64,000 nt of DNA. Origin: Callorhinchus milii. Taxonomy: Eukaryota. Numbering within the stretch: position 1 is the first letter of the stretch; the number at the start of each line of letters is the position of its first letter. The translations under genes and the position numbers were made by a program. The notes beneath the pieces were generated by a model, which ran no database searches, had not been told where the DNA came from, and saw only the letters and a program-made list of their open reading frames with translations. The stretch spans positions 10,046,001-10,110,000 of the forward strand of contig NW_024704743.1 in NCBI RefSeq assembly GCF_018977255.1. Direction: 5' to 3'. Of this stretch, positions 6,050-57,059 are shown piece by piece.

Positions 6050-6355
6050 TGTGGAGTCCTGTAGCTCCGTGGTTAGAGCACTCGCCTCGCAAACGAGAAA
6101 TCTGGGTTCAATACCCAGCAGGGTTAAATCTTGGGCAAGTTTCGTTATTCCACATGCCTGATAATAATCCCTCAAAAAAAATAGCAATTTGGTCACTCAA
6201 TCCACGACTGTTTGTAGGACACCTCTGTGCGCGATTGGCTGCTGCGTTTCGCCCACAAATATAGTCAATTCACTTTACAGTATATTCTGTGAAGCACTTT
6301 GAGACGTCTAGAAGACATGAAAAGCGCTATATCAAATGCAACGATTATTATTATT
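6050..6355 (+). mobile_element. Full-length tRNA-derived SINE, short form (tRNA head, Deu-like core, L2-type tail, (ATT)n)
   Basis: A box tagctccgtgg, B box ggttcaatac, core ctgtttgtaggac..gtgcgcgattggctgctgcgtttc, tail agcactttgagacgtctagaagacatgaaaagcgct. Confidence 0.92.
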
Positions 6356-7921
6356 AATGATGGCTAATCTTATGCCATAAATCAAGAAATATTCAAAAGT
6401 ATTAAAAAATCCTGGAAACACACTGCAGGTCAAATATGGACTTACCAAGACTAATGCGAATGTTCGGAGGGTCGCTTTTTGACAGCCCTTTGGCTGCAGT
6501 TTGGCCATCCACTGAGTTGGATAGTAGACAACACTTCCCTTTGATAGTGGAATCCATTTCAAGATGGATGTAGCCTTAAAATCAGAACCAAGACAGTTGG
6601 AACTGAGGTCAAGAAGCTTGATTCACACAAAGTTGTAAAGATGTGGGGCTCTCTGCACCAGAAAGCTATAGAGGTGGAATCAAAGGAGTAAATAATAATA
6701 ATAATCCTTGCATTTGATATAGCACCTTATCACGTCATCGATAAATCTCCAAGCGCTTCAAAGGAGAGGTAATAATAGGTATGATGAAAGGGTGGGATTA
6801 AGATTAAAGATCTTAAAGTTTTTATAAAAAATATATTCTATTTAGTATCCCAATAATCTTTTAATGAAACAACATTTAATAGTTTTGCAGAGAGGTTAAA
6901 AAATCTAGCAAATGAAATGTTGACAATTTTCCTTTTAGTAATGGGTAGGGATATGCCTTTCCCTGGTGTTGCAGGAAGCAGCGAGCTGAGTTCCTGTGGA
7001 CCACAATAACTTGGGCATTGTAAAGTGCACACTCTGTTCAGTCTTAAAACTTGTCAACAATAGTGGGCTCTGTCTAATATTTATGCACTGGAATAATAAC
7101 AAATGCCGTGTTTTCCTCAGTAAAGTCAACCTTATATGTTAATTGAAGTAACTCAAATAGCCCAATTTTCATTTGACCTGCTTTAAAACTTTGTGTATCA
7201 CTTTTGTTAACTTTTAACATAAAAACAGCATGTAATAACATGGAAGCTGGCTTCTTAATTCAAACTGCTCAGCTGAGGCTATTTTAACAGTCAACTTGAA
7301 TATTCCTATTTGTCCAGAATGAGAAGTTTAACCTACAGATGCCAACTGAAAATTGCTCTATTTTACCAGACAGCAAATGTCAACTCAACAGAGAATCTGT
7401 GAGAGTCAATCGACGAGTCAGCCTTTCATTTGGTTACCCCAAACACTTATGATTCCAAACAACAAAGAAAACAAAACCAGTTGAAGCAACCCAGCTGAGA
7501 TCCTGAAATAAGCAACTCCTGATCTGAAATGCCTCATAAACGGAGGCTAGAAAATTGATTACATTATTGTTTTAAATGTTGTCAACAACATCTTATTTCT
7601 GCCAATTTCACAATTTGTTTTGTTTTTCCCTGTGTGTATGAGGGGCTGAAAACCTCTCACCACCCACATGGATACGCACACCAATTTGAAAATTGACATT
7701 TACTGTGTGTGTAAGTGGGTTCAAGATTTTGCACTTACAATCTAGGCTGACACTCCAGTGCAGTGCAGGGTAGGTGGGGGCGCGGGTATGGGGGGTGCTG
7801 CAATGTTGAAGGTACTATCCTTCGGTTGAGACATTAAACCAAGGTCCCGTCTACCTATTCAGGTGGATGTTAAAAAATCTATGCCACCATTCTAAAAGAG
7901 AAAGTATCTCTCCTAATGTCA

Positions 7922-9175: not shown

Positions 9176-10334
9176 AATTATGATTCTCTGCAAGAACTGT
9201 TAAATGTGGTGTGCAGGGCAAAAGCAGCTGGCATTTTGAGAGCTTCTCAGAGACAGACTGTGTCAACAAATTCTTTTGGGAATCAGACAGCTGTTTGGTG
9301 AAAATAATAACAATAATAATCCTTACATCTGATACAACGCCTTTCGTCAGGAGGACGTCTTAAAGCGCTTCACAGAATATACTGTAAAGTATAGTGACTG
9401 TGTATTTTGTAGGCAGATGCAGTAGCTAATTTGCACACAGCAAAATTCCACAAACAGCCATGAAGTTAATGACCACTTTTATTTGAGGATTGGTTGGCCA
9501 GGACAAATCTATTGACGGAAATAAGAGATAGCAAAGTGTAGGATTTTTCTTCACTTTAGGACCATCCAGAAGGAACACTTGGTATTCTCTGTTCTTGCAC
9601 ATTCCTATGTTAAAGAGGCTCTGTGGTTTGCTGAGGAAGGCGAGAGGATGAATGATGGAGCCAAGTCTTAAGGTGTCACAGTAGCAACAAATCTACATTG
9701 CACTACAATGCACACTCTGCCAGTGAAGAGGCTGATGTGCTGAAGAGTTTAAATGGAATGAACTTCACATCAGAGCTTTGTGCAAAGGTGCCACTAACTC
9801 ATTAAGAGCAATGGTACTGAAAAGACTGTGGTGGACTCCATTGCCACACAGGGGAGAATCCAGAGTGAATCTGAAATATTAATCACTCCAAATTCAGCTG
9901 ACTCGAATCTACAATATTTTACTTTCCAGCTAGGAAGGTGGAGAGAAAGATGGGGGGAGAGAGAGAGAGGGGATTTTTTTCCTCTCTAGCCATGGCACTG
10001 AAGCTAACTTTAGCACTCCATCACCACCTCTTCTGTGAAGTGTGCCAACTTGGCTCAGTTGGCACTACTCTTGCCTTTGTGTTAAGTTATAGGATCAAAT
10101 CCTCACGTCGGGACTTTGAATTCACACAGTCAAGGGTGACACTCCAATGCAATGCTGGGCATTTTCTGCATTGTTGGAGGTGCTGTCCTTCAGATGAAAC
10201 ATTAAACCAAGTTCCCATCTACCTGTTCAGATGGATGTAAAGGTCTCATGGCACTCTTCAAAAAGAGAAGAGAGTTTCTCCCTTCTGAGGATCAATCATG
10301 GTACTTTCTTGTTCTGTATAACTCAGTGTCCACA

Positions 10335-10560: not shown

Positions 10561-11437
10561 AAATAAGCAATAGTTTGCTTACAAATCAGAGTCACTATAC
10601 TTCATAATAAAAATCCTATGAAGTGATTTGAGATTTTTTGATGATGTGATAAGGTACAATATCAAATAAATAGACTATGGTTAGTTTTGTGAACTGTTCT
10701 GTCAGGAGAGCTACTAAACTAATATTAAACTAAGAGGTGGGTTTCTTGGAAGGAGAAACAACAGTGTTGAATGTGTGACTGGCAAAAAGCAATTTCAGTG
10801 AATTAAGTGAATGGGCTTTTACGCTGTCAAAATACATGGCACAGATGTCCTGTAATAATATGACATGAATTTATGATTTGAAATGTGCAGCTTGATCGCA
10901 AACAGCGCATGATTACAAAAAGAATTGTTATTGCTGGAGCCTAAAAAAGCCTAAAAATGCATGCTGATGTGGCCAGAAATGATTGCAAATGTTTGCATTC
11001 TTCAGGCAAAGAGGACAGCCTTTGAGCCTTTCAATTATGGCAAGTGATGTATTGCTGTTGTATTACATGTAATGATAAATACGCAATAATTATCAGGAGG
11101 TTTTTTTTATATGTGGTATCTCACACACCAAACTTAATAAGCCTATTGCCCCCATCCTCACTCGGTTTCCTATCTTCAAGTGGACTGAATTCCTCGTCCT
11201 CATTTTTGAATCCTGCCGCAGCATCTTCCCAGCTGACAACAACAAATTATATTTATATAACGCCTTTCAAGTTGGAAGACGCTGGACAGTTAAGGGTGTG
11301 TACCCGAGCTGGGGGTTTAGATTCAATAGGGGTGGGGGAGTGTGGGTGGGGCCCAGAGTGTAGCCGTAGGCCTCAAGGAGGACGGTATTGGGAGTGCTCT
11401 AACTGATACGCTACAGGACTCCAACATAAACAATTCC

Positions 11438-11508
11438 AGGGGGCACCTGAATTTTAACCTGGGACCTCTTGATCTGCAGTCAAAGGTTCTATATTGAGCA
11501 ACACCCCC
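11438..11508 (-). pseudogene. tRNA-Cys(GCA) pseudogene
   Basis: Anticodon arm TTTGACTGCAGATCAA is intact, but the D arm and B box are damaged (GTTAAAATT). Confidence 0.85.
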
Positions 11509-11901
11509 AGTTCAAGTGTTTCAGATCTTCAAATGTTATATTTGAAATATTGCATTAAATAAGAAGGAAACATTATAAATGGCTGCGCACTATTAGACAC
11601 ACTTTGTTTTGGAAACCTTTGTTTTAAAAAAGTCTCATAAGCCCTAAAAGCCGACGGTTCACCTCAAATACTAACTGAAACTCAGGATACTCTACTGGGG
11701 ATTTGAGGGCAGACAGATCAATTAAAGTTAGTTCTGCATAAAATGTGCTATATGACTAAAACTTGTTGTTGAGCGGTAATGTACTATCTGTCTATACTGT
11801 ACCACGAATGGAAGAGAGGCATCTTAGGAACATCTGTAAACAGGAACAGGAGGAATTCATTCAGTCCATCAAACCTGTTGTCCAATTTATTAGATTTTGG
11901 C

Positions 11902-12570
11902 AGATTTTTAATCTTAATCCCACCCTTTCATCATACCTATTATTACCTCTCCTTTGAAGCGCTTGGATATTTATCGATGACGTGATAAGGTGCTATATCA
12001 AATGCAAGGATTATTATTATTATTTACTCCTTTGATTCCACCTCTATAGCTTTCTGGGGCAGAGAGTCCCACATCTTTACAACTCTGTGTGAATAAATGC
12101 TTCTTGACCTCAGTTCTAACTGTCTTGGTTCTGATTTTAAGGCTACATCCACCTACATTGAAATGGATTCCGCTATCAAAGGGAAGTGTTGTCTACTATC
12201 TAACTCAGTGGATGGCCAAACTATAGCCAAAGGGCTGTCAAAAAGCGACCCTCCGAACATTCGCATTAGTCTAGATAAGTCCTGTAGTGTTTTTCCAGGA
12301 TTTTGTAATACTTTTGAATATTTCTTGATTTATGGCATAAGATTGGCCATCATTAATAATAATAATCCTTGCATTTTTCACTTCTTCTAGACGTCTCAAA
12401 GCACTTCACAGAATATACTGTAAACTGAATTGACTGTATATTTGTGGGCGAAACACGGCAACCAATTGCGCACAGCAGTGTCCCACAAATAGTCGTGGAT
12501 TGAAGTAACCAAATTATTTTTTTTTCTTGAGGGATTATTATCAGGCATGTGGAGTAAGGAAACTTGACCA
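11902..12570 (-). repeat. Inverted duplicate of 6132-6813
   Basis: Collinear reverse-complement match including non-repeat sequence (e.g. gtcaaaaagcgaccctccgaacattcgcattagtc). Confidence 0.95.
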
Positions 12571-13276: not shown

Positions 13277-14326
13277 CAGCGTGGTCCGACAGATGTAGGG
13301 GGAGACTTCAGGAGAGGGGGAGAGGGGGGGTACAGAAGAGGAGAGAAAGAGGGGAGAGAGGTCGAAGAGGGGGAAAGAGAAGGGGAGATGTGGAGAGAAA
13401 GAGGGGGGAGTGGGACAGAGAGAGGGAGGGGTGAAGGACACTCTCTCCCCTCTCTCTCAGGCACTCTCTCTCTCTCCTTCTGTCACACACACTCTCTCAA
13501 TTACTCTCTCTCACTCTCCTTCTCACACCCTCTTACACTCACTCATGCCACTCACACTCCACCTCCACCCTCTCAATCGCTCTCTCCCCCCTCTCCTTCT
13601 CTCTTCCCCCACCTCCCCCCACTTCTCTCTCTCACACACTCCCTCTCAATCAACCTCTCTCAATCGCCCCCCTCTCTTTTTCTTTCTCTCCCCCTCTCCC
13701 TCACATTCACTCCCTCCCACCTCACGCTCTCTCTGTCTCTCACTCTCTCACACATTCTCTTAATCTCTCTCTGCTCTCCCTCTCTCAATTACTCTGTCAG
13801 TCTCTCTCACCCCCCCCCCCCCCCCCCCTTCTTACCTCTCTCACACATACACTCTTTCCTCTCTCTCCTCCTGTCTTTCCCCCCTCCCTCTCTCTCCCCT
13901 TTTTCTCTCTCTCTCCCCTTTCTTCCCCTCATCTCTCTCCCCCCTCCCTCTCCCCCACTCTCTCTCCCCCTCCCCCCTCTCTCTAATCATTCTCTCTCCC
14001 CCTCCCTCTCTCCCCCTCCTCTCTCTCTCCTCCCCTTTCGTTTTCCCAATCTCTCTCCCAAGTGCGGGTTATTATCTGCAGGGTCAGAAGCCATCGGTTG
14101 GTTGCTGAGGAAGTGGTTGGTAAGAGACGTGCTCACCTTCCTGACAGACTGCAGTAAAGGCTCTGCGCACTGCGTCCTCCCAACCGCCAGCTCCTGCTGC
14201 TGCCCTTCACCGGGGAGGGAGGGAGCAGGTTGGAATATTGGAAATGTTCTCGGGGCAGATGCGGCCCGCAGTCCTCTCTCAAATAGGGCATACGGCCTGC
14301 GGCAGCTAAACAGTTGGGCCACCCCG
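13277..14326. mobile_element. Non-autonomous hAT-like DNA transposon with low-complexity interior
   Basis: 8-bp TSD CTATAAGG (13269-13276) / CTATAAGT (14327-14334). Imperfect TIRs CAGCGTGGTCCGAC vs reverse-complement CGGGGTGGCCCAAC (10/14). Removing it rejoins the host L2. Confidence 0.75.
13300..14060. repeat. GA-rich then CT-rich low-complexity tract
   Basis: Polypurine at about 13300-13438 followed by about 620 bp of polypyrimidine. Confidence 0.95.
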
Positions 14327-14464: not shown

Positions 14465-14742
14465 ATTCAGCAGGCTGCGGCCTGCTCCATGTGCCCCGCC
14501 TGGCCTGCCCCACCATCGGCGGTTGGGCCTTCAGCCTCTCTGCCCCCACCCTTTGGAACTCCATCCCATCGTCCCTTTGCCTCGCTCCCTCCGTTGCATC
14601 CTTCAAGGCACATCTCAAGATCCTCCTTTTCGACTGCACATTGGCCACCCTCCTACCCCTACCCTCCACACACCCAGTTCCCAAATACCTACACAGGTCC
14701 CAACCACCTGCTCAGGTCCAAATCCCTGACTGTCCAGTGTCT
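14465..14742 (+). mobile_element. L2 3' fragment
   Basis: GLLHVPRLACPTIGGWAFSLSAPTLWNSIP. Confidence 0.85.
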
Positions 14743-14745
14743 TAT

Positions 14746-15104
14746 ATAATATAATCCTTGCATTTGATGTAGTGCTTTTCACGTCTTCGAGATGTCTCAA
14801 AGCGCTTCACAGAATATATTGGAAAGTGAATTGACTGTATATTGTGGGTGAAACCATGGCAGCCACAGGAGTGTCCCACAAGCATTCATAGATTGAGTGA
14901 CCAAATTATTATTATATTTTATTAAGTTTTTAAAGGGAATATTAGCCCCAGAAAGCAATCAACCAATTGACTAACAACCGGGTTCCTACATACTGTTAGG
15001 TAAACAGAGGTGGTTGAAGTAAAGAAACTTGCCTGAAGTTTTGCTCTACCCTGGAATGAATTTGGGACCTCTCGCTTGCTCTAACCAATACACTACAGGA
15101 CTAC
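14746..15104 (-). mobile_element. tRNA-derived SINE, long form, directly downstream of tRNA-Cys
   Basis: Head, internal block, core and tail are recognisable on the minus strand. Confidence 0.88.
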
Positions 15105-15119
15105 AATATAAACAATTCC

Positions 15120-15190
15120 AGGGGCACCTGGATTTGAACTGGGGACCTCTTGATCTGCAGTCAAATGCTCTACCATTGAGCTATACCCCC
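15120..15190 (-). tRNA. tRNA-Cys(GCA), degenerate / likely pseudogene
   Basis: Reverse complement GGGGGTATAGCTCAATGGTAGAGCATTTGACTGCAGATCAAGAGGTCCCCAGTTCAAATCCAGGTGCCCCT. One C is missing in the 3' acceptor strand and the T stem has two mismatches. Confidence 0.9.
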
Positions 15191-15900
15191 AACACAAGTA
15201 TTTCAGATCTTCCAATTTTATATTCCAAATATTACATTAAATAAGAAGGAAACATTATAAATGGCTACGCATTATTAGGCAGGATTTGTTTTGGAACCAC
15301 TTGTTTTAAAAAAAAAGTCTCATGAGCCCTAAATGCAGCTCAAATAGTAACCGAAGCTTAGGCTACTCTAGTGGGGAGTTGAGGACAGACAGATCAATTA
15401 AAGCGTGAGGCTGACAGCGCTTCAATCAATATGCGAGGTTCAGTTCCCTACAGTACTCATGAAAGGCAGGAGCACTATTTGAGAATAACTTTTATGAATA
15501 ATTAATTATTTTGACTCAAACCACGTGATTCAGTTCAAGTGTGCTATGGCGGCTACAGATGCTCACTGTGTAGTATGTGAGGCAGCCTGTCCAGTGACAG
15601 CAGACACTAGTCTGGGGAGCTGTCATCAATCCTATCAGAACACTGCATGTCAAGTAAGGACTGAACCATGGTTTTCCAAAATACTGGTGCGTTGGTGCGT
15701 TGTAACGTCCCACTGAGGACGGTCACATGATTACATTTGAAGACTCTTTGACCATGGTCATTTCCCCTCTCTTTTAGGGCTTATGAGACTCTTTTTTTAA
15801 AACAAATTCTGCCTAATAATGCATCGCCATTTATAATGTTTCCTTCTTATTTAATGTAATATTTGGAATATAACATTGGAAGATCTGAAACACTTGTATT

Positions 15901-15972
15901 GGGGATATAACTCAATGGTAGAGCATTTGACTGCAGATCAAGAGGTCCCCAGTTCAAATCCGGGTGCCCCCT
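15901..15972 (+). tRNA. tRNA-Cys(GCA), degenerate / likely pseudogene
   Basis: GGGGATATAACTCAATGGTAGAGCATTTGACTGCAGATCAAGAGGTCCCCAGTTCAAATCCGGGTGCCCCCT matches the vertebrate tRNA-Cys pattern. It has A-C mismatches in the acceptor, D and T stems; the B box GTTCAAATC is intact. Confidence 0.9.
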
Positions 15973-15986
15973 GGAATTGATTATAT

Positions 15987-16351
15987 TGGAGTCCTACAGT
16001 ATATTGGTTAAAGGACTCACCTCGCAGGCGAGAGGACCCGGGTTTGATTCCTGGGCAAGTTTTTTTGCTCCACCCGCCTCTGTTTATGTAGTATGTAGGA
16101 ACCCGGTTGTTAGTTGATTGGCGGGTTACTTTCTGGGGGTAATAACCTCTTTAAAAAATTTAATAAAAAATAATAATAATTTAGTCACTCAATCTATGAC
16201 TGTTTGTGGGACACTGCTGTGTGCAATTGGCAGTCCCGGTTTTGTGCACAAAATATTCAGTCAATTCACTTTACCGTATATTCTGCGAAGTGTTTTGAAA
16301 CACCTCAGTGATATAAGACGCTATATTAAATGCAAGGATTATTATTATTAT
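15987..16351 (+). mobile_element. tRNA-derived SINE, long form, directly downstream of tRNA-Cys
   Basis: ggagtcctacagtatattggttaaagg...aaggattattattatta. Confidence 0.88.
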
Positions 16352-16864
16352 AGAATATGAATTTTTCTGAAAACAAATGCTTAACTAAGAACATAGGAGA
16401 TGTCCATTCAGCCCATCAAACTTGCTCCTCCATTAAACCCATGGTGTGTTAACCCATTTCTCTGTCTTTTCCCCATACCTCTTAATGTCCTCACTTACCA
16501 AGTATCCAGTTAGATTTACCTCTCTTTTGAATACTTCAATCACCTCTAACGGTGTAATGGCCACGAATCACGCTCACATTTTACATCAGAAACTCGGGCC
16601 AAAGCTCAGTGTGAGAGCCCATTACTTGTTAAGTTGGTTTCCAAAGCTGAGAAACATTTGGGTAATGGTGGTATGTGTTACATCCATAAAATTGACGCAC
16701 ATTGGGCAACATTTCCAAACCAGATACCGACTTCTGGCAACATTTTTGGGACTCAGGATATTAAAACCAAGAAATCCATTGATTTATTTAACAAAATGTT
16801 TTAGTATTTTTGGTTGGTGGTGAGATGGAAACTGATTTAGTTTATTTGTTTCTATCTGCCTACC

Positions 16865-18029: not shown

Positions 18030-18430
18030 TGTCAGCCTAGCTTTCCCAATCTCTCTCCCAGAAAGCTGTGGGTTCAAGCCCCACATTTGGACTTGAATAC
18101 ACAGAGTCTAGGCTGACACTTCAATGCATTGCTGGGGGTGTGCTGCATTGTTCAAAGTGCTGTCCTTTGGATGAAACGGGTCCCATATGCCTATTCAGAT
18201 GGATGTTAAAGATCCTATGGCGCTATTCAAAAAGAGAAGAAAGTTTCTCCCAGTGACCTAGCTGACAATTCCCCAAATAAAATTTGTAATTTGTTTCATG
18301 GCTTTTTGTGGGACATTGCTTTGACAATTGGGCTGCTGTGTTTGCCTACAAGTGCACCTCATAGTAATTCCTGTGAAATATCCTCCTGATATGAAAGGCG
18401 TTATACAAATTGCAATAGTTATTATTATTA
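18030..18430 (+). mobile_element. Older DeuSINE-like element (SacSINE1/AmnSINE-like). Further copies near 580-975(-), 2320-2480, 10040-10290, 32655-32880, 36020-36650(-), 57900-58310(-)
   Basis: gtgggttcaagcccc..tctaggctgacact..gtgctgcattg..tgctgtcctttggatgaaac..gtgggacattgct pattern recurs across the copies. Family name is from recalled consensus. Confidence 0.65.
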
Positions 18431-32078: not shown

Positions 32079-32387
32079 TGTGGAGTCTTGTAGCTCAGTG
32101 GTTAGAGCACTCGCTTTGCAAGCGAAAGACCTGAGTTCAATTCCAGGCAGAGTCCGAAACCTTGGGCAAGTTTCCTTACTCCACACAGAGCCTAATAATA
32201 ATCCCTCCAAAACCAAAAACAATAATAAATTGGTCATTTTTAATCTACGACTGTTTGTGGGACATTGCTGTGTGCAATTGGCTGCCGCGTTTGCCCACAA
32301 ATATACAGTCAATTCACTTTACAGTGTGTTCTGTGAAGCGCTTTGGGACGTCCTCCCAACGTGAAAAACGCTATATCAAATGCAAGG

Positions 32388-32420
<33 letters not shown>

Positions 32421-32626
32421 ATCCCTCCCAAACCAAAAACAATAATAAATATTGGGCATTTTCAATCTACGACTGTTTGTGGGACATTGCTGTGCGCAAT
32501 TGGCTGCCGTGTTCGCCCACAAATATACAGTCAATTCACTTTACAGTGTGTTCTGTGAAGCACTTTGGGACGTCTTCCCAACGTGAAAAGCGCTACATCA
32601 AATGCAAGGATTATTATTATTATTAT
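32079..32626 (+). mobile_element. tRNA-derived SINE with tandemly duplicated body and tail
   Basis: One head followed by two near-identical ataatccctcc...aaggattatt units. Confidence 0.92.
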
Positions 32627-42600: not shown

Positions 42601-43242
42601 AAATTTTCCCCTATGGAAAAGTGACTAATAAACCGAACCGTACTAAAATGGGCCGCATTGAAAAATAAAAATGCGATAATTAAAACCATCTTACCTTCAG
42701 ATTTTCAACCAAGTAAAGTTCAACAAGATGGTAGTACTGGCAATTTTATTGCCTGAAATAGAAACAAATAATATTGTGTATCCCTCAGGTACTGTGAAAG
42801 TGAGTGAACTTGTGCCAAGTGTATTGCGTAGGAAATGAAAATTCTGTTCACTGAAGGTGATATTATAAAAGTATAGTTTCTACAGCTTTTTAGAGAGTTT
42901 ATTTTTAGAAGTTTTACAAGGTCTCACAAAACAGTTCGGTTATCAAGATACCCAAAAGGTTTATATCGCCTCAATTACATATTTATAAATTTAATTTGAT
43001 AATTGTTTTCCCCTTTGTCTCCTGCAGGAAACGTTCCTTCAACATGACTTCCCTCAGCAAGGTGGTCAGGTTAGTAGTCCTGATTGTGAGCTTCTCAACA
43101 CCAACCACCAATTCAGATCTCCCTTCCTCCTTCCAACCCCCTCTCCTTTCCCTCCTGGTTTGCCTGCAAAATACAAAGCTAATACACTTTACAGTATGTC
43201 CTGTGAATCACTGTGAGATGACCTCCTGACTTGAAAGTCACT

Positions 43243-44904
43243 TTCTTGCCCCACATATCACTGACATCATCAACCTGTCCCTCTCCTCTGGCTCTGTCCC
43301 CATTCCATTAAAAACTGCCATCATCACGCCCACCCTGAAAAAACCCTCCCTTGATGCGTCGCAGCTATCAAGTTACCGGCCCATCTCCAACCTCCCATTT
43401 CTCTCCAAGGTCTTGGAAAGAGTTGTCGCCTCCCAACTGCGCTCTTTCCTTTCCACCCATTCACTTTTCGAACCCCTTCAGTCAGGTTTCCGTGCTGCCC
43501 ATAGCACAGAAACTGCCCTGGTCAAGGTCACCAATGATATCCTGACCATCTGTGACCAGGGCTCCCTCTGTCTCCTCGTCCTCCTCGACCTATCGGCAGC
43601 ATTCGATACGGTCGACCACGCTATCCTACTCCACCGCTTGTCCTCCCACCTCAACCTTCAAGGCACTGTCCTTGAATGGTTTAGGTCGTACCTTTCTCAC
43701 CATCTTCACTTTGTCTCGATGAATGGCTTCTCCTCCACCCCCCGCACTGTCTCATGTGGTGTCCCTCAGGGCTCTGTCCTTGGTCCCCTCCTCTTCACCC
43801 TCTATATGCTCCCCCTTGGTGACATCATCCGCAGACATGGAGTTAACTTCCACATGTATGCGGATGACACCCAACTCTACCTTTCCTCCTCTACTCTCAA
43901 CTCCACGACCACCGATGTCCTGACAGCCTGCCTGTCCGACATCGAGTCCTGGACGAGAGACAACTTTCTTCAGCTCAACGTGCGAAAAACCGAGGCCCTC
44001 CTGATTGGCTCACGTCAGCGCCTCCGCACCTCAGGCGCTGACACCATCAGCATCCAAGGCTGCACTCTCCACCTCTCAAAGCCAGTCAGGAACCTCGGGG
44101 TTCTGTTCGACCCTGAGCTGTCCTTTCTCTCTCACATCCGCACCACAACTGGCACCGCCTTCCATCACCTCCGGAACATCGCCAGACTACGACACTACCT
44201 CACCCCTCACGCTGCTGAAACCCTGGTTCACGCCTTTGTCACCTCAAGGCTGGACTATGGGAACTCTCTCCTCGCCGGCCTTCCCGCCACCTCCCTCCAC
44301 AAGCTGCAGGTCATTCAGAACTCTGCAGCTCTTGTACTGTCCCGCACCAGGCTTCGGGACCACATCACTCCCACCCTCGCTCGCCTCCACTGGCTCCCCA
44401 TCCCCCAGAGGATTGATTTCAAGATCCTCATCCTCACCTACAAGGCCATTCACGGCCTTGCTCCCTCCTACCTCTCCAACCTACTATCCCCCTACCTACC
44501 TGCCCGTACCCTCCGTTCCTCTGGCTCCGGTCTGCTCCACATCCCCCGCCCCAACCGCCCTACCACTGGTGGCCTGGCCTTCAGCCTCTCAGCCCCCAGG
44601 CTCTGGAACTCCATCCCCCAGTGCCTTCGCCTTGCTTCTTCCCTTTCCTCCTTCAAGGCCGGTCTCAAAACCTTTCTCTTTGACCGTGCCTTCAGCTCCC
44701 CTCTCGACTCTCTTCCCCCTCCTCGCTCCCTCCCTTCCCTCCCCTCACCCTGACCATTTCCCCCCTCCTTGCTCCCTCCCTTCCCTTCCCTCACCCTGAC
44801 CATTTCCCCCCTGCTCGGGTCATGACCCAACTGTGCAGCGCCTTGGGACATCCTCCTGACGTGAAAGGCGCTTTATAAATGGAATCTTGTTGTTGTTGTT
44901 GTTG
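43243..44904 (+). mobile_element. Young 5'-truncated L2-clade LINE (RT domain, 3' UTR, stem-loop tail, (TTG)n end)
   Basis: RT motifs [53 protein letters not shown], plus the L2-typical C-terminus [15 protein letters not shown]. Ends in agcgccttgggacatcctcctgacgtgaaaggcgctttataaat followed by (ttg)n. Confidence 0.97.
43245..44753 (+). CDS. L2 ORF2 reverse transcriptase fragment; uninterrupted frame, lacks the endonuclease
   Basis: ORF track 43413..44753 (446 aa). Manual reading shows the frame stays open upstream to the truncation point at about 43245 ([16 protein letters not shown]...). Confidence 0.85.
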
Positions 44905-50832: not shown

Positions 50833-53304
50833 GCATATCCTAACAAATCTCTTGGGTGAACAAATATTTCCTAAGTTCTTCTTTCGCTAATCTTGTGACT
50901 ATCTTAAAACTATGTTTCCGAGCCACTGATTCATCTGTCAATTGAAACAATGTCTCCCTATTCATCCTATCAAAACCCCTTATAATTTTGAGCACCTTTA
51001 TCAGGCGCCCCTCAACCTTCTCTGCTCCTAAGAAAACAGACCCAGCTTTTCCAATCTCTTATCAGAACCATAGCCTTCATCCTCAGATTCATTCTCGTAA
51101 ACCTCCTCAGCACCCCCTCAAAGTCTTCACATCTTATTCTGGAGGACTTTTATTATTATGAGCAAAGTGTGGTTGGGGGAGCTGATGAAGATGGGAACGT
51201 GGGTGAGGGGGACGGAAAGGTAACTAAAGGCATGGTCAAAAAGAAAAACGTTAAAGCAGGCTTTAAAGGTGGGAGGGGAGGGGGTTGAAAGAGCAAGGTG
51301 GAGGGTCTCTGGGATAGAGTTGTAGAGAGCAGGAGCAGAATGGCTGAAGGCTTGCCCACTGATGGTAGGCCAGCTAAATAGGAAATATGAAGCAGACCAT
51401 GTTCTTTTGTAATTTTCAGCAATTCCATGAGATTCACACTTATCTGTTTTTGTCCGGTAAATACAGCCTATTTTTAAACCTTACAAAATCTTCAGATTTT
51501 TGTCAATCTACACTTCATACCCTTGCTTTGGCTCTAACATCTTTTAGAAACATAAAACCATAGAAATCTACAACCCAACGGAGGCCATTTGGCGCATCAA
51601 ATCTGCACCAGCTAATTTTCTATTTTGTATAATATTGTCTGCAATAATAATCCTTGCATCCTTGAAATGTATTGACTGTGTATTTGTATGCAAATGCAGC
51701 AACCAATTTGCACACAACAATGCCCCAGAAATAGCTGTGAAGTGGATGACCAACAATGCCCAAATCTATCATACGATCCACTCAAAACTGCACATTATTC
51801 TCAAGCTGCCTTCAAACCAATGTCTTCTACAGATTCTACACTGTGGAATTGTGAACCTAGTTTATTAAATCTTGGTTAGATTTAAGATTTGTTGTGGCAT
51901 ATAAAGCTGTACCAATGTTTATCCAGATTAAAGTAAATATGTCATCATGTCACCATGAATTTCCTCTTCCTACATTCATTATATCTGACATGTCTGTATT
52001 ATTGTAACAAATCTTTTATTTGCTGAAAGCAAATCGCTCGGGGTTTGTTACTGAAATCCTGCAGGCATCAACAGACCCCTTTTTAGAAATACAATTTAAT
52101 ACTGATTAATAATAATTAATAATTAATAATAAGACTTACTTGTGATTAAATGAACCAGCCCATCAACTTTAATTTGATGCATTGGTTCGTTATCATTGCA
52201 ATTCAAACGAAGAATGCATACTAGATAGCAGTGAAATGATATTCGGCAATGTAATGCTGGGTTTAGTATCTAATGTGAGATCAACATTACCCATCGTTGG
52301 CACTTTGGGAAAATAATCAAGGTGTCTTACCTTGTCCTGTCTCACTTTACCACTGTGTTCAGTGATACTTCTAGCAGTGGGTATTCATAGCACTAACACT
52401 GTTCTATAGTAATACTTGCATTCGATAGAGTGCTTTATCACGTCTTCAAAAATTCTGAAAGTGCTATATCTTCTATAGAGTGTAGTGACTGTGAATGTTT
52501 TTATTAGGTAAGACACGTTGATTATTTTTCCAAATTGCCAATGATGGGTGATGTTGATCTCACATTTGATACCAAACCCAGCAATATGGAATTGATAATG
52601 ACCACCAGTGATCATTAAAAATTCCACAAATGTTTTCTTTGAATAATTATTCATCAACATTTAAAATAAATCTCCAAACTTTTTTTCTGGGAGTTTTGAC
52701 TGCCTGGTGAATAGCTGTTTGATTGGGTTATTGTACTAGAAATTACATTCTGGAATTATGACCATGGCTTGCAAAGTAATTACAAAGGAAACATTTGGAC
52801 GTTTGTTGAAGAGGAAAAGGAAGGAGCCTTTGCAAGTCATGCTTGGCTAAGGTGTATGAAGGAACTCGAGGCTCCTATTGAACTACAAAACGAACAATAA
52901 TTGTTCGTGCAACAATACGATGCACGAAGATGGACATAAGTTTAGAGTTACACAAGTAATTTCAGGATAGATATCAGGATGTTTTAGTTTACCTAGAGGA
53001 TAATTCAAACCAATTGGTTCTGCTTGTTCTGATGATGTATCATCATCTCTGTCTATCTTTGCTGAAGCAACTTCAGCTTCACATTGATAGGAAACTTTCA
53101 GTGAATAATTAATCATTCTTTTTCTGGCCAGGGTAATATATGCTCAGCTTTAGTCCTTGAATCCAGCTCCAGTCCTTGAGTCTAACATGGCAATTTGGTC
53201 CATCCTTTCTGTGCTGGTTCTTTTAAAAAAACAATCTTTTCAGTTTCATTTACCTGCCCTTTCTCCATACCCCTGTAGTTTACTTTTTTTACATATTATT
53301 TAAA

Positions 53305-53619: not shown

Positions 53620-54110
53620 TTGCAGGTTAATATGGATTATGCCTCAACCAGTGTTCTTGCCAGGGCATTCCATATCCAAACTACTTTGTGCATGAAGAAT
53701 ATTCTCCTAACCTTTCCATTTGCTGGTTTTCTCACTATTTTGAATCAATGCTCTCTAGTTACTGACTCACCGACCAGTGGAAATTATTTCTCCATATTCA
53801 CTCTTTTAAAGACCTTTATCAGGTCACCTGAGCACTTTCTTTGTTCCAACGGAAAAAGTCCCAGTTCCTCCAGTCTGTTTTCATAGGCCAAACCACTCAT
53901 TCCGGTATCATCCAAGTAAATCTCCTCTGCACCCCTCTATTACCTTGACATCCTTCATAAAGTGGAGTGACCAAAACTGGACACAATATTCTAACTGTGG
54001 TCCAACTTTCTTGACAACTTTGTTAATGTCCCTTCTGACCTTTAAGGATTTCTGTACGCTCACACTTAGGTCACTCTGCTCTTCCACTCCTTTTAATAAT
54101 TTACCACCTA
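53620..54110 (-). mobile_element. CR1-clade LINE 3' fragment
   Basis: Minus frame EEQSDLSVSVQKSLK..PQLEYCVQFWS is the CR1 ORF2 C-terminal signature (EYCVQFW). Confidence 0.85.
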
Positions 54111-54119
54111 ACATATTCT

Positions 54120-54345
54120 TGCTTGAGCTAAGTCCTTCAGTCCAACTTGAGTCCAGCTGTAGTCTTCGAGTTCAGCACCTTTCAGGCTCTGCTTTTTGAA
54201 TCTAGCTCCAATCCTCAAGTCTAGTTCTCGTTCAGAGTTCCAGTTCTTGAGTCCAGCCCCCAAATCCTCTGGTATGATCCCAGTTTGTTCAGTCCAGATC
54301 CAGTTCGTTTAGTCCAGCAACAGTCCTAAGATCCAGCTCCAGTGT
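54120..54345. repeat. Degenerate ~19-bp tandem array (gagtccagctccagtcctt-like)
   Basis: Recurring agtccag..cagt units; 2-3 related units also occur at about 53145-53185. Confidence 0.7.
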
Positions 54346-55407: not shown

Positions 55408-56601
55408 AATTGAACACACAGCATATCTACCCCCACCCTCTGGAACAACAACAACAAACAACATTTATATAGCAATTTATATAACCATCCCTTTGACTCA
55501 TCCTTTCCCTTGCCTCCTTTAAGATTCTCGTCAAGACCTTTCTCTTTGATTGCGTTTTCAGCCATCTTTCCTTCCTCATCACCTTCCTGAACTTCTCCAC
55601 CACCCACAGCTTGGGTGCAAACCTTAGACTGTCAGTGTCTTGGGATGTCTCCCTGATGTAAAAGGTGCTATATAAATGTAAATATTTGTATTGTGTATTT
55701 TATTGTCTCATCCAAAGTATAGCACCTCCAACAATGAAGACTGACACTAACCTCTAACAGCTGTGTCAGCCTAGATTATGTGAATTCAAAGTCCCAAATG
55801 ACAACTCTTGTATAACATAATACATTATGGTTAATAGTTAATTATTCTATGCACAGGCCTCTTTGCAAAACTGCACTTGTTAGTATTTGCAACAAGCTTC
55901 TTCTCCATTGCCTTGTCCATGCAAAAGTGCAGAGACATTGGGATTCAAACTTGCTACTTCTGCATTTACCTCCTCCAATGGTAAATGAACAAAGAATTTG
56001 GGTCAGAGTGTAACGGAAGAGGGTGAGGCTGGAACGTATCCAAAAGAAGATGTTCTGCATTGTTTATATCTGAGTGAATCCAAATTAACAGCTCTCTGTA
56101 AATGCGTCTATTGTTTCAGGAGCCAAGATTTTGTGGCTTATTTTGAAGCAGGAGCAGAGTCAAGATTTCTATATGGTAGAGGGTAAAGACTCAGAGCAGA
56201 GAGGCTTGTAAGCCAATATCGCATAATACATCAGTGACGGCTAGGATACTGGGTGGGGGAACTTGATATTTGGCAAGATGTTTTAAGGGGGCCATGTTGA
56301 CTTCATCCTATCATATAATATCTGAACTGTATGACAGGACCAGGTACAGAATGGAGCACTGTTGGAGGGACGTGTTTCAGATGAGGACACAGGCTGCAAA
56401 GTTCTGGATGATCTGCAGCTTGTGTAGGGAGGAGTTAGGGAGTCTGGTAAGCAGGACATTGGAATAATTGAACCATGAACTAATGATGTTTGCAGGTAAC
56501 AATGTCAAATGTTGGGGATTATTTAATTTGCATAGCTTTTGGTTCTTGTTCATCTGAAAGACAGCACCTCTGATAATATCACTTTGGGAGTCAGTCCAGA
56601 C

Positions 56602-57059
56602 CAGTGTTTCTCAAATGCGGTCACCCATGTCATCTTCTGTGGCCACACCAGTCCCCCAGGCCCCCCACACTGTGTGCAGCTGCAATTGGCCAGCTCAACA
56701 GCAAGACAGTCACTCGTAACCACCAAACAGATTACAATTGTCTGTACCGGCAATTCCTTAATGATTATGTTTGATTGTTTATGTACATCACAAATGCTGC
56801 GCAAGGTTTGGTGAAATGAGTGGTGCTGAACTCAAAGACTACAGCTGGACTCAAGTTGGACTGAAGGACTGAGCTCAAGCAAGAATATGTTAGGTGGTAA
56901 ATGTACAGCAATCAATGAAAAGCATTTCAGATGTGCATATTTCCTTTATTTGTCATATCATTCATTAAGTATTTTTAGGAAGAACTAGCACTGCAGCCAC
57001 CAGTAAGTGTTGGTGGCTGCAAACTGAGGCCATCAAAAAAAATTGTTTGTGAACCACTA
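56602..57059. mobile_element. hAT/Charlie-like MITE remnant
   Basis: TIR-like ends CAGTGTTTCTCAAA and reverse-complement TAGTGGTTCACAAA. The left flank GTCCAGAC fits the hAT target preference; the right TSD is not preserved. Confidence 0.5.

Follow-up and report, generated by a model that had tools for sequence, protein, structure and literature searches.

The question raised by this locus of Callorhinchus milii is whether three tRNA-Cys copies, each with a SINE directly behind it on the same strand, represent the source gene of a composite retrotransposon, or merely the local duplication of a tRNA gene with a repeat as passenger. In the window, i.e. the whole stretch of 64,000 nucleotides (64 kb) analysed, the evidence favours the second answer: an old local duplication, at the DNA level, of a tRNA-Cys with its passenger SINE, followed by homogenisation of the arms and decay, is the likely history, with a probability of about 0.8.

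Organisation of the cassettes

The three tRNA-Cys(GCA) copies (C1, C2 and C3) were found where an earlier note on this DNA had placed them (Table 1; the boundary of C2 falls at 15119 or 15120), each followed by a shared linker of 14 nt and a SINE head on the same strand, as seen in a three-way alignment. ARAGORN identifies C2 and C3 as Cys(GCA) and misses C1, and the Rfam tRNA scores are 58.3 bits for C2 (15119-15190) and 55.2 bits for C3 (C1 in Table 1). With at most one mismatch, the linker occurs only in the three cassettes of the 64-kb window; the lone match with two mismatches, at 56056, has no SINE head after it. Since the flank, the tRNA and the linker have no further match anywhere in the 64 kb, the cassette unit is far beyond chance. 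Its three copies are all clustered, with a combined spread of less than 5 kb.

C2 and C3 lie head-to-head, BLASTN pairing 14746-15333 with 15773-16348 in inverted orientation (77.8% identity over 613 columns, E about 1e-143). The inverted repeat of about 590 bp described earlier stands as regards the alignment of its arms, but these are not uniform and form a mosaic of 5% and 16% divergence. Similarly, the upstream flank is common to all copies, although its length, given as at least 130 bp, is 128 nt in C3 and about 215 nt in C1 and C2; the C3 flank also lacks a 15-nt piece, the gap sitting between two short direct repeats. The spacer measures 439 nt, in agreement with the 440 bp reported, yet it is not wholly unique, its first 70 nt or so (15336-15403) matching C1 11660-11727 at 87%. 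The third copy, C1, has the tRNA, the linker and the head, but its SINE stops after about 32 nt and is followed by an L2 3' fragment; the rest of this SINE was sought in the 430 nt beyond the fragment and not found there.

A search of the flank, linker and spacer with Rfam (E<=1) gave no additional RNA family. With Pfam, no host exon rose above the cut-off among 143 ORF stretches (142 of the 279 low-repeat candidates and one LINE ORF, a set from which short exons would escape), the reverse transcriptase (RT) domain of the LINE being the sole find. This LINE (43230-44900), which we take to belong to the L2 clade, has an uninterrupted frame of 507 codons with a full RVT_1 domain (E 7e-37).

Other features of the window were recorded in passing. 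A second repeat family, seemingly akin to the Deu-domain SacSINE1 type, is found at 10116-10282 and 18093-18251. Two inverted pairs of 81 nt are also present: 54099-54179 with 56822-56902 (97.5% identical and of low copy number within the window), and 52252-52332 with 52506-52586 (90%, about 170 nt between them), which could be a small terminal-inverted-repeat element. Moreover, a purine-rich and then long pyrimidine-rich tract with weak self-complementarity (13300-14050), some 700 nt from C2, is a possible non-B DNA site close to the rearrangements.

Table 1. Coordinates of the cassette components and adjoining elements in the 64-kb window
Feature	Position	Strand	Basis
L2-type LINE 3' fragment with TTG-repeat tail, in place of the C1 SINE body	11233..11391	-	aligns with other L2 3' ends of the window
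Truncated SINE head of C1, some 32 nt	11392..11423	-	alignment
C1 linker; non-canonical Pol III terminator T2GT3 at 11428-11433	11424..11437	-	motif class, PMC3141230
C1 tRNA-Cys(GCA), best read as a pseudogene; D-loop GG lost, T-loop/B box broken	11438..11508	-	Rfam, 30.9 bits
C1 upstream flank, about 215 nt of it common with C2 and 128 nt with C3; a TATA-like element lies at -32	11509..11727	-	
L2 fragment, about 50 nt short of the normal 3' end, adjoining the C2 SINE tail	14467..14743	+	
C2 SINE; tRNA-Ala-like head, L2-like tail; deletion in the head, B box lost	14746..15105	-	
C2 linker; T2GT3 at 15110-15115	15106..15119	-	
C2 tRNA-Cys(GCA), damaged	15120..15190	-	ARAGORN, Rfam
C2 upstream flank; inner arm 15191-15333; 15336-15403 common to C1 only; TATA-like element at -32	15191..15403	-	
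Single-copy part of the spacer	15404..15772	.	one 20-nt hit as its only match in the window
C3 upstream flank, the inner arm; 93.8% identity to C2; TATA-like element at -32	15773..15900	+	
C3 tRNA-Cys(GCA), damaged	15901..15972	+	ARAGORN, Rfam
C3 linker; T2GT3 destroyed by one substitution	15973..15986	+	
C3 SINE, of the old type over its whole length; mutated B box, deletion of 19 nt, T7 inside it at 16060-16066	15987..16351	+	
T5 run 11 nt past the C3 SINE tail; candidate for the displaced original tRNA terminator	16362..16366	+	post hoc

Duplication history and decay

The flank shared over 128-215 nt lies outside what Pol III would transcribe, the junction between tRNA and SINE is shared as well, and no duplication of flanking bases was found around either whole cassette (C2, C3), the longest match being of 4-5 nt. 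The flank, the close spacing and this lack of a target duplication show a local duplication of the unit at the DNA level, as the earlier note had proposed.

The history that we favour would start with a genuine tRNA-Cys gene, with its native flank and a TATA-like element at -32, which gained an L2-dependent SINE of an old subfamily 14 nt behind it. The SINE would have landed just past the T2GT3 terminator, so that the tRNA gene could keep working. The unit of flank, tRNA and SINE was then copied locally twice as DNA to give C1, C2 and C3, one copying being in mirror image; the C2/C3 pair is best accounted for by template switching that duplicated the unit in inverted orientation, one junction of which would fall within a SINE and the other at 15772/15773. 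Subsequently the inner arms would have been homogenised, probably by gene conversion over the 439-nt spacer, with the SINE parts drifting, while all three tRNAs decayed. The SINE would thus be a passenger and would not have been produced from the tRNA promoter. C3 is slightly favoured as the parent copy, although this is not settled, a 7-nt candidate target duplication at C2 being one that would make C2 the parent instead. A target duplication for the SINE only was considered and set aside, as the matches, 6-7 nt long, run into the TTA tail and are indistinguishable from microhomology.

The homogenisation step was deduced from the distribution of differences between the arms. Over the flank and tRNA (to 15980) C2 and C3 mismatch at 11 of 206 positions, against 53 of 338 beyond (change-point permutation p about 0.009). 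CpG decay is ruled out as the source of this step, which remains at non-CpG sites: 9/207 for flank, tRNA and linker versus 41/307 for the SINE (p 0.0007). The non-CpG divergence between C1 and C2 (29/222) is the same as that between the C2 and C3 SINEs, so the three copies look similarly old, and the simplest history would be that the inner arms of C2 and C3 were homogenised afterwards.

The SINEs themselves belong to a family which is dense in the window, with tRNA-Ala-like heads, a body that may resemble the CORE domain, and copies 74-93% alike. Seven tRNA-Ala calls by ARAGORN (1305, 6055, 7928, 25230, 32082, 42483 and 53303) are heads of this family and not tRNA genes, and the SINE tails can be aligned to the RT-bearing LINE (43230-44900) at its 3' end. 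At 32215-32401 and 32435-32623 the 3' half of a SINE is duplicated in tandem, the two being sisters in the tail tree (94/81).

The similarity between C2 and C3 ends exactly at the SINE tail, the 3' flanks being unrelated. In the 5' part of the two SINEs (250 columns), 9 of 186 columns hold a shared state seen in at most one other copy; such private shared states number 0/141 in the 3' part (Fisher p 0.012). In their 5' part both SINEs thus descend from one insertion, to which a private A-rich insertion common to the two also points. Trees of the SINE halves place C2 and C3 as sisters in the 5' part (84/85) and not in the 3' part, neither with starred support. Furthermore, the C2 SINE is old-type in its 5' part, while its 3' third is nearer to younger copies (10% from the consensus, versus 15% for C3) and adjoins the L2 fragment that stops about 50 nt short. 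One C2/C3 junction may thus lie inside a SINE, as a SINE-SINE chimera, which would account for the similarity ending exactly at the tail; the indication is suggestive only, because a C2+C3 clade in the SINE 3' part is not rejected by the AU test (p 0.31).

With respect to the tRNAs, damage was confirmed in all three copies, each with pair-breaking lesions. Both the D-loop GG and the B box are gone from C1. In C2 the 3' strand of the acceptor is one base short, with a shifted acceptor end, and the T stem has two mismatches, the A and B boxes still matching. C3 has one mismatch in each of the acceptor, D and T stems and an altered A box, and a T-stem mismatch is common to C2 and C3. In tRNA-Cys the discriminator base is, as a rule, U73; no copy combines it with an intact cloverleaf and A and B boxes, and both boxes are kept in C2 only. 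All three are most readily taken for pseudogenes, although C2 or C3 may be transcribed at a low level.

A second inverted duplication, between 6132-6813 and 11902-12570, lies 175 nt from the C1 flank and contains no tRNA. Its copies are 90% identical overall, diverging at 18 of 447 positions outside the SINE and 21 of 213 inside it (p 0.004; non-CpG p 0.11), and they carry different SINE copies at one end, with 0/201 private states in common. Thus, SINE-bounded inverted copies form here without any tRNA. This duplication also contains a SINE tail nested in the apparent 3' fragment of another element, which looks to us like a CR1 3' end.

Pol III termination and the rival explanations

The earlier note saw no T4 Pol III terminator between tRNA and SINE. 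The linkers do lack T4, but T2GT3 stands at +5 in those of C1 and C2, and in C3 a T7 follows 88 nt downstream of the tRNA and about 290 nt ahead of the L2-like tail. In C2 the first T4 comes 695 nt after the tRNA, with none ahead of the SINE tail. In assays of human Pol III in vitro, T3VT2/T2VT3 were the most efficient of the non-canonical terminators tested, the form ending in T3 being the better one and all being weaker than T4/T5, as reported in PMC3141230; these human strengths are here applied to a Callorhinchus milii sequence. The path from the tRNA to a LINE-like tail is therefore closed in C1, which has no SINE body, and in C3 by the T7, and a full tRNA-SINE dimer is ruled out for these two of the three present-day copies. 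The C2 path is free of T4, yet it crosses three non-canonical motifs, the T2GT3 at +5 and those of the T3CT3 and TCT3 types at +93 and +114. As C2 lacks T4 over 695 nt and keeps A and B boxes, partial read-through across its entire SINE is physically possible, and some Pol III leak through C2 may occur. A T5 within 20 nt of the tail was found in 1 of 18 SINE tails of the window (that of C3; background 2.8% of 20-mers), the pattern behind this count having missed the C2 tail; it would be expected if the SINE had inserted ahead of an ordinary tRNA terminator.

The marks which the descendants of such a transcript would carry were also sought: after RNase Z release, copies should start with the linker, and copies from a source gene should bear its private marks. 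The linker precedes none of 10 other SINE heads in the window (best identity 8/14), and the substitutions private to the SINE of C2 and C3, three in number, appear in 0/10, 0/6 and 0/7 of the other window copies with letters at those sites. The private A-rich insertion is seen in 0/12 other window copies. The comparison set, of about a dozen copies, all in the window, is one from which a minor subfamily could escape. A derivation of the linker as an antisense remnant of an L2 tail was not supported, since 25% of AT-matched 14-mers score equally well.

These data bear on the proposal that a SINE source gene had the tRNA as its external Pol III promoter, read-through or RNase Z cleavage giving a dimeric or linker-headed SINE RNA able to retrotranspose. 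Neither for the read-through dimer with its L2 tail, nor for the RNase Z product, nor for the source gene did the window give positive evidence. The shared strand, the 14-nt gap with its T4-free linker, a C2 free of T4 up to the SINE tail and a SINE tail resembling the L2 3' end of the window all speak for it. However, an intact SINE carries its own promoter, which makes an external one superfluous, and both the terminators and the missing linker and private marks in the window sample weigh against it. Read-through at weak terminators, yielding 3' trailers (PMC3141230), and MIR SINEs under the control of A/B boxes from unrelated sequence upstream (PMC5381342) have been described in human, which lends the proposal some plausibility. 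Even so, we consider it very unlikely that an ancestral cassette leaked past T2GT3 and seeded elsewhere a small and undescribed subfamily, either tRNA-Cys/tRNA-Ala dimers or SINEs headed by the linker; on that same improbable reading, C2, with both promoter boxes and no T4 ahead of the tail, would be the best-preserved form of the leaking cassette.

That C2 and C3 were working tRNA genes until recently, selection and not conversion holding flank and tRNA alike as the SINEs drifted, is unlikely as well, although the low-divergence tract stops near the tRNA 3' end (the step lies at 15980, directly past it) and working-gene selection would give the same pattern. The TATA-like element present in all copies and the Rfam scores of C2 and C3, still at 55-58 bits, agree with it; against it, the tRNA is not better conserved than the flank (3/71 versus 8/128 differences, p 0.75), its differences break pairs in the stems, and C2 and C3 have a T-stem mismatch in common. 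Besides, strong purifying selection reportedly does not act on the flanks of tRNA genes, which mutate faster where the gene is active (PMC6130373). A further explanation, in which the cassettes arose by retroposition from a longer transcript of Pol II and are variously truncated at the 5' end and end at the SINE tail, would fit the differing 5' ends and the abrupt end of similarity at the tail before unrelated 3' flanks. It is highly improbable in view of three copies inside 5 kb, unlike dispersed retroposition, of cassettes without target duplication, of a C1 without SINE tail and of a SINE 3' third without shared private marks. Finally, as the arrangement is taken from the assembly alone, the repeat might be an artefact of it, an idea which is scarcely credible given that the copies are 5-16% apart with independent indels, unlike a false duplication, and that four sequencing runs (four samples, one study) contain 52-64% of the words sampled from 14700-16420. 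Among the runs listed as containing them there is no RNA run, which says nothing either way on expression; smaller shares (0.08-0.11) in runs under three other organism labels were left out of account.

Relation to known systems and significance

Local duplication and pseudogenisation of tRNA genes, as well as SINE- or Alu-mediated template-switch inverted duplications, are known processes. Like the latter, the C2/C3 pair has its inverted copy close by, with a suggested end inside a SINE, another end without long homology, and a probable homogenisation afterwards; it differs in being under 1 kb and inferred from a single sequence. The window SINEs recall, by description and not by consensus, the CmiSINEs of Callorhinchus milii (SINE2-1_CM / SINE2B-1_CM), whose partner LINE is L2-2_CM (PMC5499810), having a tRNA-Ala-like head with A and B boxes, a 3' tail akin to an RT-bearing L2-type element and a very high density, whereas the cassette copies have no B box and have private indels.

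As for transcription, the missing T4 close behind the tRNA is reminiscent of read-through trailers and of dicistronic tRNA-snoRNA or tRNA-miRNA units (PMC3141230), and the SINE in the would-be trailer of MIRs under upstream A/B boxes (PMC5381342). Unlike those systems, two of the linkers here hold a non-canonical terminator of the strong class, the tRNAs are damaged, and the locus is known from sequence alone. The arrangement also resembles families of dimeric (complex) SINEs, among them Alu, B1-dID, Twin and Urop (PMC3531059, PMC13023118), with two Pol III-derived modules in tandem on the same strand and a LINE-related tail. SINEBase asks for a size below 1 kb, at least 60% identity to a tRNA over at least 60 nt and a copy number of 100 or more in the genome (PMC3531059). 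The tRNA, linker and SINE together measure about 450 nt, with an Rfam tRNA match and two RNA-derived modules. Dimeric SINEs form at least 100 retrocopies, interspersed among flanks that are unrelated, each beginning at the 5' end of the RNA; here there are three clustered copies, all of which share the 128-215 nt of flank. Neither this locus nor a SINE dimer headed by tRNA-Cys was found in the literature searched, whose coverage excludes most subscription papers. The cassette is real and, in the literature covered, not described, but most likely ordinary: a local tRNA duplication carrying a passenger repeat.

If true, the source-gene reading would offer a snapshot of the birth of a dimeric SINE from a real tRNA gene and a passenger SINE, and dispersed dimers, if found, would raise the importance of the locus, as it is seldom possible to identify the locus that founded a dimeric SINE. 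The locus also brings two cautions: the absence of T4 is not the absence of a terminator, and the similarity between SINEs can lengthen the apparent extent of an inverted repeat. As it stands, it provides a small example, in a genome dense with SINEs, of the birth and death of tRNA genes and of an inverted duplication that is bounded by a SINE and was probably homogenised later.
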